Origin: a virus
Taxonomy: Duplodnaviria; Heunggongvirae; Uroviricota; Caudoviricetes
Reading direction: 5' to 3' (one strand)
DNA: 49,610 nt
Virus record (IMG/VR): IMGVR_UViG_2534681673_000009
Part shown: positions 24,001 to 27,000 of the stretch, one piece after another
Layout: each line of letters starts with the position of its first letter
Numbering within the stretch: the first letter of the stretch is position 1
Program-made: the position numbers

Positions 24001-27000
24001 TCCCGTCGACGTTTTATAAACGAATTAATGCAGGCGATCGCCGGGGTGCATGCGAGGCGATTCGCTGGTGGATTAAAGACGGTGGCAGAGACTGCCGTAT
24101 CCGCTCAAATAACTGTTATGGTCAGGTATCCCGTCGTGACCAGGAGAGCGCGCTGGCGTGCTGGGGTATCGACAGATAAGCCGAATATTTTGCTGAAAAA
24201 TGACGTTGGCCAACGCGGACGGATAACACGAAATCCTGCGAACTGGCAAAATGTAAGTGAATAACGTCAGGAACATTATTTCACGCAGAGGCACCGTAAT
24301 GGTGCCTTTGTCATTTCTGCGCTTCGCACAAGCGTAAATAAACCAAAGAACCTTTCAGGATGAGCCCTGGTGGATAACCGGCAGTGGTCTGGTTAACCCT
24401 CTTTGGGCTGGTTATTCCTGTGCGCAGGGTTCATCACTAAAAGGAAATAACCGATGAATATGATGACCGTGCCGTTTCACGGCGATTCTCTTTATGTGGT
24501 TAACCATAACGGCGAACCATACGTTCCCATGAAACCTGTCGTTGAGGGAATGGGTATGACCTGGCAGTCTCAACACCGCAAATTGATGGAGAGATTTAAG
24601 ACCTGCATCATCGAAATGATGATTCAGCTCCCCGGTGATACTCAGCGTCGTCTGGTTATCTGTCTTGCTTTACGTAAACTTGCAGGTTGGCTGCAAACCA
24701 TCAACCCAAATAAAGTTAAACCTGAAATCCGCGACAGAGTCATTCAGTATCAGGAAGAGTGCGACGATGTTCTCTATGAATACTGGACGAAGGGTTTTGT
24801 CGTTAATCCTCGTCAAATGAGCGTGATGGAAGAACTCAATCAGGCTTGCGCTGACATGCAACGGGATAAAAACATTGTCAGTGTGTTTGCTACCGGGCTG
24901 AATGAGTGGAAACAGGTTAAAGCTGCGCATGTATCAAAAATCCGCACATTGATAAACGAAGCGAATCTGCTGATTGATTTTGTCCTAGCTGATACAGGCA
25001 AAGGGAAAATAACAAAGGCGGATTGATGGAGAGGTGGCTAATGATATCGGATAAAATCATAACGCTGACAAAGACCATTTGTGTGATTGTCGACGTTTCA
25101 TTTTCGCTAATGATGGTTGCTCTTTTTCTTTCCATAGCCTGGATGGCGTTGAGTTCGGCAGGGCTGGTGGGGTGAGCATAAACCGAATTATTTCCGCGTT
25201 TACCGTTATTCTGCTGGTGGTCTGTGGTGTGCTTAGTCTGGGGCTGAATCATTACCGTGATAACGCCATCGCCTACAAAGAGCAGCGCGATAAAGCCACA
25301 TCCATCATCGATGATATGCAGAAGCGGCAACGTGATGTAGCAGAACTTGACGCCAGATACACAAAGGAGCTTGCTGATGCTAATGCGACTATCGAAAGTC
25401 TCCGTGCTGATGTTTCTGCTGGTCGTAAGCGCCTGCAAGTCGCCGCCACCTGTGCAAAGTCAACGACCGGAGCCAGCAGCATGGGCGATGGAGAAAGCCC
25501 AGGACTTACAGCAGATGCTGAACTCAATTATTACCGTCTCAGAAGTGGAATCGACAAGATAACCGCGCAGGTTAACTACCTGCAGGAATACATCAGGACG
25601 CAATGCCTGAAATAATTTTTTTGCAAATCACAAAGTCCATTTAATGAGCCCCGCGATGCGGGGCTTTTTTATGTACGCAGTAAACGCGCTTCACACGCGC
25701 GACTTATGAACACAGAACCTTTCAGGATGACCCTTGAGGATGCCGGTTTGGTGATCGGTGCCTTTCTGTGGGCCGGAATCCTGTGTGACAAGGTTCATCA
25801 CTAAAAGGTGTGCACTGATGAATTATCCAACTATCGTTAACGGCATCGATTTTCGAGATCTGATTTTTGTGGCAAACAACGATCCGGTTACAGATTCTTT
25901 TATGGTGGCAAAAGCATTTGGAAAGCTGCCGAAGAACGTAGTTCGTGACATTGAACGAACCATAGAAGCTTGCCCTCCTGAGTTTGATACAAAGCTCAAC
26001 TTTGAGCTTTGCTATAAAAACAATGAGTTACAGAATGGTAAGCCGCAAAAATTCTACCGTCTCCGCAAGGATGGGTTGATGCTTTTGGTTATGTCCTACA
26101 CCAAAAAAGAAGCAATGCGTATCAAAATTGCTTACATCAACGCATTTAACTGGATGTACGCCATGCTTCAGGTTGGTCATCGTCAATTTGAAGAAGAGAG
26201 AAATGCCGTAATGCTGGAGTACATGAAAGAGAAGGATGTTGCCAGCATGTCAGGTCGCCTGCTAAATCGCTGGGGCAAAATTAAGAAGCCACAGCTGCTG
26301 GCTAGAATTGAACGCCTTGAACAGCACGGGCAAACCGTAATCCCCGGACTCATCAATTAACGGCAGTACCGCGAAACAACCCAAGCCAGTAAGTGGGGAA
26401 ATAACACTGGCAGCCACTGAAAGATGAACCTCCAGCCTTATGGCAAAAAAGATTCTTTGTGGTGGCGGACTGATGGAAAGACATCGGTTATTGCAGAGGC
26501 CATTCAATGAGTGGTCTCGACAATGGCTTATACCCTACACGGGATAACTTAATTGATATCCTTTTTAACGGATAAAGGCATTTCAGCCTGACATAGCCAT
26601 GCGCCGTATCGTCGCCGTATTCCTGCATTAACAGAGACCGCAGCCCGACAGGGAGACTCCTCTGCGAGAGTGTGCGGGGATAATCAAAAACGATACACAC
26701 CGGGGTTTACCGCGTTAACGGAGCGCGGCGTTGTCCCCTCATGGTCGCTGGTCCGGTGCGATGGTGGAAGAAACTGGATTTTGTTGCAACTGATAACCAT
26801 TATCATTTTACGGGTCCTTTCCGGCGATCCGGGCCGTTACGGGGCGGCGACCTCGCGGGTTTTCGCTATTTATGAAAATTTTTAGGGAAAAATCAGATCC
26901 GTTCTTCTTCTTTTTAACTGATTGATTATCAATAGAATTTTAAAAATATAAAAGGATCTGACAAAGGCTGTTTTTGTTAGAAAACGCCATTTTCAGATCC

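Follow-up and report, generated by a model that had tools for sequence, protein, structure and literature searches.

The IMG/VR record IMGVR_UViG_2534681673_000009 holds 49,610 nucleotides (nt) of DNA from a virus of the Caudoviricetes, and in this stretch, which was analyzed at its full length and is called the window below, two genes for different regulators, one antirepressor-like and one Rha-like, are each preceded by a copy of the same structured RNA leader. In both copies the Shine-Dalgarno (SD) sequence of the downstream gene is one strand of the basal helix of a long hairpin, and the fold, whose helices all show covariation, recurs in front of very different genes in phages and prophages of the Enterobacterales. 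From the computed structures and the comparative alignments, we consider it probable that each copy is a portable, cis-acting translational gate, carried on the plus-strand late messenger RNA ahead of an accessory gene. We are less confident about the direction in which a second helix of the element, formed between its 5′ flank and its apical loop, would act on this gate.

Two copies of one leader in the window

The original prediction, made by reading the window, held that the regions upstream of the two genes share two sequence blocks at the same distance from the start codons. Both blocks are where they had been placed: a repeat finder returned them as 24344-24369 and 25711-25736 (D3, 88%) and as 24425-24459 and 25789-25823 (D2, 80%), with spacings of 1367 and 1364 nt, respectively, so the blocks are equidistant from the start codons of the two genes. 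The blocks, CCUUUCAGGAUGA on the 5′ side and UCAUCACUAAAAGG on the 3′ side, are mutual reverse complements and form the opposite strands of a single RNA helix, in which the 3′ block is the SD sequence and the 5′ block its complement. The structural pattern CCTTTCAGG..TGGGC..CTWAAAGG matched the window exactly twice, at 24351-24444 and 25718-25808 (expected number from 100 shuffles, 0.00). A covariance model, run over the whole window with its filters off, scored 75.7 bits at 24319-24458 and 58.6 bits at 25686-25822, the next match reaching 11.5 bits. The window carries just these two copies, each of about 135 nt, one ahead of each gene, and the true unit reaches some 30 nt further upstream than had been predicted because a hairpin, P0, belongs to it.

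From 5′ to 3′, the element consists of P0, an A/U-rich spacer, an 8-nt 5′ flank (a) and an interrupted hairpin of about 27 base pairs (bp), P1-P2-P3, which we also call the rod. In its basal helix, P1, CCUUU is paired with AAAGG, the SD of the downstream gene, whose start codon follows after 7-10 nt. The two window copies adopt the same hairpin, and the differences in its interior preserve pairing. The parts of each copy, with the hairpin and U-tract that precede it and the minimum free energy (MFE) of the rod, are the following.

Copy 1
24290..24316 (+): terminator-like hairpin GGCACC-GUAAU-GGUGCC, then the interrupted U-tract UUUGUCAUUU; directly after the endolysin gene; read from the sequence; weaker than that of copy 2
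24319..24335 (+): hairpin P0, GCGCUU-CGCAC-AAGCGU; the covariance-model match starts here
24343..24350 (+): 5′ flank a, CCAAAGAA; abuts P1 and is complementary to 24399-24406
24351..24444 (+): long interrupted hairpin P1-P2-P3; MFE -43.1 kcal/mol, z = -3.6; 5′ arm CCUUU-C-AGGAUGAGCCCUG..., 3′ arm ...CAGGGUUCAUC-A-CU-A-AAAGG
24399..24406 (+): apical-loop segment a′, CUCUUUGG; complementary to flank a
24440..24456 (+): 3′ strand of P1, AAAGG, which is the SD (24440-24444), a 9-nt spacer and the ATG (24454)

Copy 2
25646..25676 (+): intrinsic terminator GAGCCCCGC-GAU-GCGGGGCUU, then UUUUAUGU; after Rz/Rz1; strong, with a 9-bp stem that includes 7 G-C pairs
25685..25701 (+): hairpin P0, CGCGC-UUCACAC-GCGCG; from the sequence and the model match
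25711..25717 (+): 5′ flank a, CACAGAA; abuts P1 and is complementary to 25764-25770; duplex about -9 kcal/mol
25718..25808 (+): long interrupted hairpin P1-P2-P3; MFE -37.1 kcal/mol; matched by pattern and model
25764..25770 (+): apical-loop segment a′, UUCUGUG; complementary to flank a
25804..25820 (+): 3′ strand of P1, AAAGG, which is the SD (25804-25808), and the ATG (25818)

The duplex of flank and loop (a:a′) in copy 1 is worth -9.7 kcal/mol with flanking bases and -8.1 kcal/mol for the 8-nt segments. The terminator-like hairpin of this copy was missed by a consensus scan because its T-run is interrupted.

The fold, its strand and the flank-loop classes

As expected of an SD-sequestering operator, the SD is paired to an upstream complement and the pairing is conserved. 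In the nested ensemble the SD bases of both window copies are more than 99% paired, with an unpaired probability of at most 0.009 for each of the four, and P1 is 99.5% paired across the 88 distinct variants described below. In divergent types P1 reads CCUG...CAGG instead, and the SD is still paired.

To look for covariation, we aligned 78 sequences with plain MAFFT and folded the consensus with RNAalifold. The sole helix called on this alignment was a:a′, the pairing of the 7-8 nt immediately 5′ of the hairpin with the apical-loop segment, with CG/AU/UA and GC/AU exchanges. We also built a covariance model, R1, from two in-register sequence types, using P0, P1, P2 and the proximal part of P3. 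Realignment to R1 gave 96 matches, 88 of them distinct, and a:a′ was added as a pseudoknot for pair counting; the alignment is not fitted to a:a′ because this helix was outside the model. Across the 88 distinct copies, whose sources include Escherichia coli, Salmonella, Klebsiella, Xenorhabdus, Pantoea, Erwinia and Sodalis, 94.5% of the cells pair, vs 32-50% when the partners are slid by 1-3 columns, and double (compensatory) changes occur in 21 of the 33 pairs and in five helices; none of 500 shuffles reached any of these measures. P0 has double changes in all five of its pairs, with 98.8% of cells pairing, and P2 in 10 of 12. The a:a′ helix is 90.6% paired; one of its pairs is CG in 68 copies, AU in 15 and UA in 3, another is GC in 38 and AU in 31, and its one-sided changes are G.U wobbles. 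G.U outnumbers A.C by 16:1 in P0 and 51:2 in P2, and the structure is therefore read on the plus strand, which is also that of the genes. Good folds are obtained for the reverse strand, too (z = -3.0 and -4.1), and a minus-strand fold of the sar kind was ruled out by this asymmetry.

The flank and the loop fall into 14 sequence classes, among them CCACCGAG/CUCGGUGG, CAUCGAA/UUCGAUG and CGUCGA/UCGACG, further flanks being CCACAGAG, CACAGAA, CCAAAGA, CCAUAGAG and CCACCGAA. In a test that does not depend on alignment columns, its own loop was the best partner of the flank in 13 of the 14 classes, the mean duplex energy being -10.2 kcal/mol for self and -5.8 kcal/mol for non-self combinations, and none of 20,000 permutations gave a value as low. 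The internal loops also vary by type (GAGCGC, GUGUGA, GGGCAA). One natural recombinant, at 2520-2656 of L161, joins a P0 and flank of the window-copy-1 type (type A) to a hairpin body of the 933W type (type B); its crossover lies at the flank/P1 junction, and its flank-loop helix contains an A.G mismatch.

These data bear on the idea that the element has no function of its own, being either a recombination linker or scar at module borders or a DNA-level site (an operator or promoter), and that it is maintained by frequent exchange. The element does lie at mosaic junctions, and L161 shows a type-A flank joined to a type-B body. Neither a scar nor a protein-binding palindrome, however, predicts double changes in five helices, a strand-specific excess of G.U or flank and loop classes that match themselves, and no promoter-like site was found. 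This explanation is disfavoured, and we regard it as the least probable of those considered. In the window, no sigma-70-like promoter was detected on either strand of 24150-25900, and a promoter within the element was rejected, since beyond the lack of sigma-70-like sites the -35/-10 boxes found by hand were inconsistent between types.

Several other structural candidates were tried and discarded. A toggle of the P3 5′ strand between a proximal hairpin (H1) and the distal strand was dropped on account of the distal pairing being far stronger in the Pantoea and TerB-linked types. The internal loop between P2 and P3 lacks the tandem G.A signature of a K-turn. A BoxA/boxB-like reading of a′ and P0 meets unconserved loop sequences and an a′ that covaries with the flank. 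Binding of CsrA to GGA in CAGGAUGA and to the SD does not fit the Klebsiella-type 5′ arm, CAGGGGUGA, and some E-type copies, which are without GGA. In copy 1, UAACCGG at 24375-24381 can pair with either of two identical CUGGUUA segments, at 24389-24395 or 24408-24414, one pairing giving a small inner hairpin and the other an extension of the rod; support for the two is unequal in other types.

No conserved leader peptide

The leader had also been predicted to encode, in copy 2, a hydrophobic peptide of 25 amino acids (aa) with its stop next to the ribosome-binding site. An open reading frame (ORF) does exist at 25706..25804, and its internal Met codon at 25728 gives MTLEDAGLVIGAFLWAGILCDKVHH, but the peptide is not conserved. 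Copy 1, said to lack the ATG, has the same ATG at 24360 in another frame, where it gives MSPGG followed by a stop. Translation of such a small hydrophobic ORF ending beside the SD could in principle open the hairpin and couple cargo translation to its own. A suitable layout, in which a frame that begins with ATG or GTG in the 5′ arm ends at the UAA immediately before the SD, is found in 23 of the 88 distinct variants, copy 2 of the window included. Against it, 26 variants lack a start codon at the conserved position, with AUA there in Xenorhabdus and AUC in Pantoea/Erwinia; 31 terminate within the hairpin after 2-22 codons, and 8 lose the stop and run into the cargo region. One-base insertions or deletions between close relatives lead to unrelated peptides (MTLEDAGLVIGAF... 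vs MTLEDAGWLSVPFCGP...), no SD precedes the putative start, and the substitutions track base-pairing, not codon positions. The leader-peptide reading is thus largely refuted, and coupling through an upstream ORF is very unlikely.

Distribution, cargo and genomic context

By BLAST, the leader is found in 317 phage records, among them 933W and other Stx phages, in which it lies ahead of ant, the P22-like Salmonella phages ST104, VSe13 and SPN9CC, in which it precedes KilA-N or Rha genes, and Klebsiella phages. DNA similar to copy 1 is present in 725 of 5426 complete Escherichia coli genomes (~13%), at a median of four places per genome, and the RefSeq annotation at these sites names the ant gene only. 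When IMG/VR and a set with one genome per species were scanned with a loose pattern, about 60 distinct cores were returned, in Escherichia, Salmonella-type phages, Klebsiella, Raoultella, Citrobacter, Siccibacter, Xenorhabdus (at least 10 species), Providencia, Arsenophonus, Sodalis, Pantoea, Erwinia, Mixta and Rosenbergiella. About 70 further pattern matches beyond the Enterobacterales were dismissed as chance, as none of them scores with the covariance model. The model search added copies that the pattern had missed, namely a TerB-linked subtype and the divergent E types. Some prophages have three copies (e.g., L198), and copies within one phage, the window included, differ in flank class. 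The original prediction of a reused leader module ahead of two different regulator-type genes is therefore borne out well beyond this phage; given its presence in many phages and genera of the Enterobacterales, the leader is not a private local duplication.

Two tiny contigs, L074 (392 nt, labelled Xanthomonas pisi) and L022 (700 nt, labelled Kocuria sabuli), also contain the element, one with a core identical to that of window copy 1 and the other of the Klebsiella type; their presence in non-enterobacterial assemblies is likely to be assembly contamination.

The gene behind the leader is exchangeable. Cargo types are P22_AR_N, Rha, KilA-N (with or without P63C or ORF11CD3), Bro-N, ANT/KilAC, T5orf172/MUG113, HNH_3 and TerB, and the gene upstream varies as well (Rz, endolysin, Q-type proteins, other late genes). 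In at least 87 of 111 distinct contexts, the core is preceded at a distance of 40-59 nt by a hairpin with a T-run, which comes directly before P0. With varied cargo and upstream genes around fixed parts, the constant unit consists of terminator, P0, spacer, flank, SD-bearing rod and start codon. The TerB-linked subtype is located directly downstream of the Q antiterminator/tR′ late terminator region, ahead of a TerB-domain protein of 141-143 aa. Examples are found in L006 (Klebsiella phage 5 LV-2017, 1484-1615), L136, L198, L113 and L127, with none in the window; the TerB-domain protein behind this subtype would be the first late gene product.

A recurrent layout of this kind could also serve to process or punctuate the late transcript. 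The rod as a substrate of the RNase III type, the A/U spacer by P0 as one of the RNase E type, or a self-cleaving fold would free the cargo message, leaving the upstream message with the terminator hairpin as a 3′ cap and giving the cargo message its own stability and translation, and such processing could coexist with a gate. The terminator-P0-spacer arrangement at a fixed distance in those contexts, a rod of about 27 bp in two to three coaxial helices, and the position of the element at cassette borders before varied genes are consistent with it, as is a resemblance to hammerhead ribozymes bordering variable prophage genes (PMC3088659). On the other side, Rfam families of ribozymes or processing elements gave no match, even with E values up to 10 allowed, and conservation is strongest in the SD/anti-SD helix, unlike the unpaired core nucleotides of ribozymes. 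We consider processing as the function of the element unlikely.

A model of the proposed translational gate

We return to the translational gate, which we favour. The rod conformation would hide the SD, so that ribosomes cannot load and translation of the cargo would be blocked by default. Since flank a joins the anti-SD strand without a linker, a:a′ and P1 should compete, and formation of a:a′ would open P1 and free the SD. The a′ segment lies one nucleotide from the distal end of P3; because a:a′ ties together both ends of the ~27-bp rod, it should need either the opening of P1 or a sharp bend of the rod. The a:a′ helix covaries and is comparable in energy to P1, which it is predicted to exclude because of the zero-nucleotide junction. 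With initiation included, a:a′ is worth from -8.1 kcal/mol in copy 1 to -12.2 kcal/mol, and P1 about 6 kcal/mol; the two states should therefore lie within a few kcal/mol of each other, before any pseudoknot penalty. The a′ segment is transcribed ahead of the SD strand, and a:a′ can therefore form first on the nascent chain, where it would permit a short burst of translation until the more extended rod closes. Alternatively, the two states would equilibrate and set a low, fixed translation yield. Given the upstream terminator, only Q-antiterminated late transcription should reach the cassette, as a second lock, and toxic or regulation-disrupting cargo (Ant, Rha, KilA, Bro, HNH and others) would thus be doubly locked.

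This model should be approached cautiously, as several points weigh against it. In the TerB-linked subtype the nested MFE structure leaves the SD partly open, with an unpaired probability of up to 0.9 for two of its four bases. Most sequences were retrieved by a pattern that fixes CCTTTCAGG, TGGGC and CTWAAAGG, and the invariance of CCUUUCAGG, UGGGC and CUWAAAGG is therefore overstated; the copies found by the model only carry CCUUUCGGG, CCCAAAGG and other variants. Because many of the sequences are related, the shuffle counts cannot be read as probabilities, and more robust evidence comes from the 14 flank classes and the slid controls. Alignment is unreliable in the apical stretch between P3 and a′, and the energies include neither a pseudoknot penalty nor tertiary terms. 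We infer the mutual exclusion of a:a′ and P1 from geometry, i.e., the zero-nucleotide junction and the length of the rod; if the rod bent sharply at the asymmetric P2/P3 internal loop, a:a′ could instead stack on P1 and make the lock tighter. That a:a′ would turn translation on, and the timing proposed above, are likewise predictions. The model leaves the role of P0 and the fixed upstream terminator unexplained, and the effect of the leader on translation and its switching between two states are predictions from computation.

Comparison with known RNA elements

A search of Rfam, at the gathering threshold for the window and at E values up to 10 with relaxed filters for 24200-25900, returned nothing relevant; the local matches were those of the Rz terminator to unrelated small RNA (sRNA) models and a weak osmY match of 16.8 bits. 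No Rfam riboswitch matched, and the internal loops differ by type; a new class of riboswitch ligand is something that computation cannot exclude. No model of a self-cleaving ribozyme (hammerhead, twister, pistol, hatchet, HDV-like) matched at E values up to 10. Like the hammerheads of prophages (PMC3088659), the leader is a structured RNA repeated within a prophage and bordering single genes or short blocks of changing identity, which suggests punctuation of the transcript; unlike them, it is without a hammerhead core, and its conserved core is the SD/anti-SD helix.

A close likeness in layout is to c4 of the immI region of phages P1 and P7, which lies on the same transcript as an antirepressor gene and ahead of it, and in which a long outer stem encloses an inner hairpin and a single-stranded segment is complementary to a short site on the same transcript, the pair varying between phages to give specificity types. 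The c4 RNA, of about 77 nt, is excised by RNase P processing and acts in trans. An analogous trans riboregulator could be imagined here: the hairpin would be cut out as a stable sRNA and pair, through its loop a′, with the flank a of further message copies or of the message of a related superinfecting or co-resident phage, the 14 flank/loop classes being immunity-like specificity types. The shared topology, the location before antirepressor-type genes, the self-specific classes, and the presence of different classes in one phage (the window, and L198 with its three copies) fit this idea. Nevertheless, c4 has two pairs of targets, a1/b1 and a2/b2, with a2/b2 over the ribosome-binding site, whereas the leader has one pair, whose target lies upstream and abuts the hairpin itself, so that an interaction in cis is simpler. 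The best duplexes of the loop with the 76 nt downstream (-6.3 and -6.4 kcal/mol) were no better than shuffled, and the only complement is the upstream flank. Moreover, unlike in c4, the leader hairpin itself occludes the SD, and its cargo is not limited to ant. Homology to c4 was rejected, as the Rfam models RF01695 and RF03163 gave no match here while finding c4 (68.8 bits) and a1b1 (51 bits) in P1 as a positive control; conversely, R1 scored at most 4.3 bits on P1 immI. With 6 bp still common to classes B and C, strict orthogonality between the copies of one phage is not given, which also counts against a c4-like regulator. Overall, we judge this alternative to be quite unlikely. In P1 (L232), the Rfam model for isrK, a Gifsy-1 sRNA, gave 35 bits, below its gathering score, on the a1/b1 target region (48230-48311), which hints that IsrK and the c4-a1b1 elements may be related.

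A broader proposal, also unlikely in our view, is that the leaders form a new class of portable, addressable RNA gate with trans action among leaders of the same address, or a new self-processing RNA that punctuates late transcripts. In the trans version, hairpins excised from one cassette or prophage, with at least 14 addresses, could build a c4-like network over Ant, Rha, KilA and Bro across the Enterobacterales.

Metastable RNA folds offer another comparison. The work of van Duin and of Gerdes reportedly described delayed folding at the maturation (A-protein) gene of MS2 and metastable folds of hok mRNA. In these systems, the SD is paired upstream at equilibrium and a helix made earlier, beside the anti-SD, could hold the site open on the nascent chain, as we propose for a:a′. 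The MS2 and hok elements, however, belong to single genes of one RNA phage or plasmid family, whereas the leader is a portable cassette in temperate double-stranded DNA phages and comes with a terminator and P0.

In the lambdoid phage P22, translation of the antirepressor is controlled at the ribosome-binding site, by sar in immI. The sar RNA is transcribed antisense to ant and has a promoter and a terminator of its own, whereas the leader is on the coding strand by its G.U pattern and has no promoter-like site. Finally, like the morons of lambdoid phages, of which the 'ant moron' of P22-like phages is an example (PMC2629481), the genes behind the leader are accessory genes between late genes, with fast turnover of content and an associated terminator. 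Classical morons have their own promoter, a downstream terminator and expression from the prophage, whereas here the terminator is upstream, no promoter was detectable and the conserved RNA is the constant part. In the window there is no sigma-70-like site within 24150-25900, the terminator comes before the leader, and ant is directly followed by overlapping ORFs that lead into Rz.

The lysis region of the window

In the window we recognize the late region of a lambdoid genome that resembles those of Stx phages, the nearest records being Shigella phage POCJ13 and Stx2a phages. Domain matches agree with the original identification of the genes around the leaders as an antirepressor-like gene, a Rha-like gene and Rz.

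22280-22549: holin
23646-24179: endolysin (lysozyme)
24454-25026 (+): antirepressor-like gene, cargo of copy 1; P22_AR_N (7e-46), weak ORF11CD3 match, phrog_524
25172-25615: Rz, with Rz1 embedded
25818-26360 (+): Rha-like gene, cargo of copy 2; Phage_pRha and ORF11CD3, phrog_518

Downstream of the Rha-family gene are Nu1 and then the large terminase. In the Rha-like protein, ORF11CD3 is C-terminal to the Phage_pRha N-terminal domain, and the antirepressor-like protein matches this domain weakly, below threshold (20.6 bits; cutoff, 25). If genuine, the match would point to domain shuffling within one phage.

The stop codon of ant (TGA, 25024-25026) overlaps the ATG (25026) of an ORF for a hydrophobic protein of 50 aa (25023/25026-25175; phrog_4906, function unassigned), the stop of which (TGA, 25173-25175) in turn overlaps the GTG start (25172) of Rz. 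Because stops and starts overlap, the three genes look translationally coupled, and a leader gating ant could therefore also influence spanin synthesis.

Two other features of the region were noted. A full-length Rfam match to STnc100 (19266-19479, plus strand, 194 bits), which lies some 5 kb before the lysis genes, probably represents this phage's late-promoter leader/tR′ RNA. Between holin and endolysin, two ORFs without Pfam matches, at 22567-23220 (+) and 23200-23520 (-) (phrog_1085 and phrog_1853), form an accessory block inserted in the lysis cassette that is without the structured leader.

Significance

Leaders that sequester the SD and contain competing helices are known; what appears to be new is this family, its terminator-P0-flank-loop architecture and its portability across cargo. 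The motif sequence was found in none of the papers searched, a set that most subscription-journal papers lie outside, so an earlier description cannot be excluded; in a 2025 review of phage small RNAs and in papers on P22-like genomes, no mention of the leader was found. Of the temperate phages, the Stx phages (933W, for instance) and the P22-like phages of Salmonella are some of the best studied, yet this ~135-nt RNA has no match in Rfam. It fronts the most rapidly shuffled accessory genes (Ant, Rha, KilA-N, Bro-N, KilAC, T5orf172, HNH and TerB), up to several times per prophage, and is a compact natural RNA part with interchangeable 'address' helices. If the leader does gate translation, this would explain how genes that are toxic or trigger induction can reside inside late and lysis operons, and the gate could also touch spanin synthesis in the window through the overlaps of ant, the small ORF and Rz. 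It would also provide a handle on the timing of antirepressor production during the induction of Stx phages.

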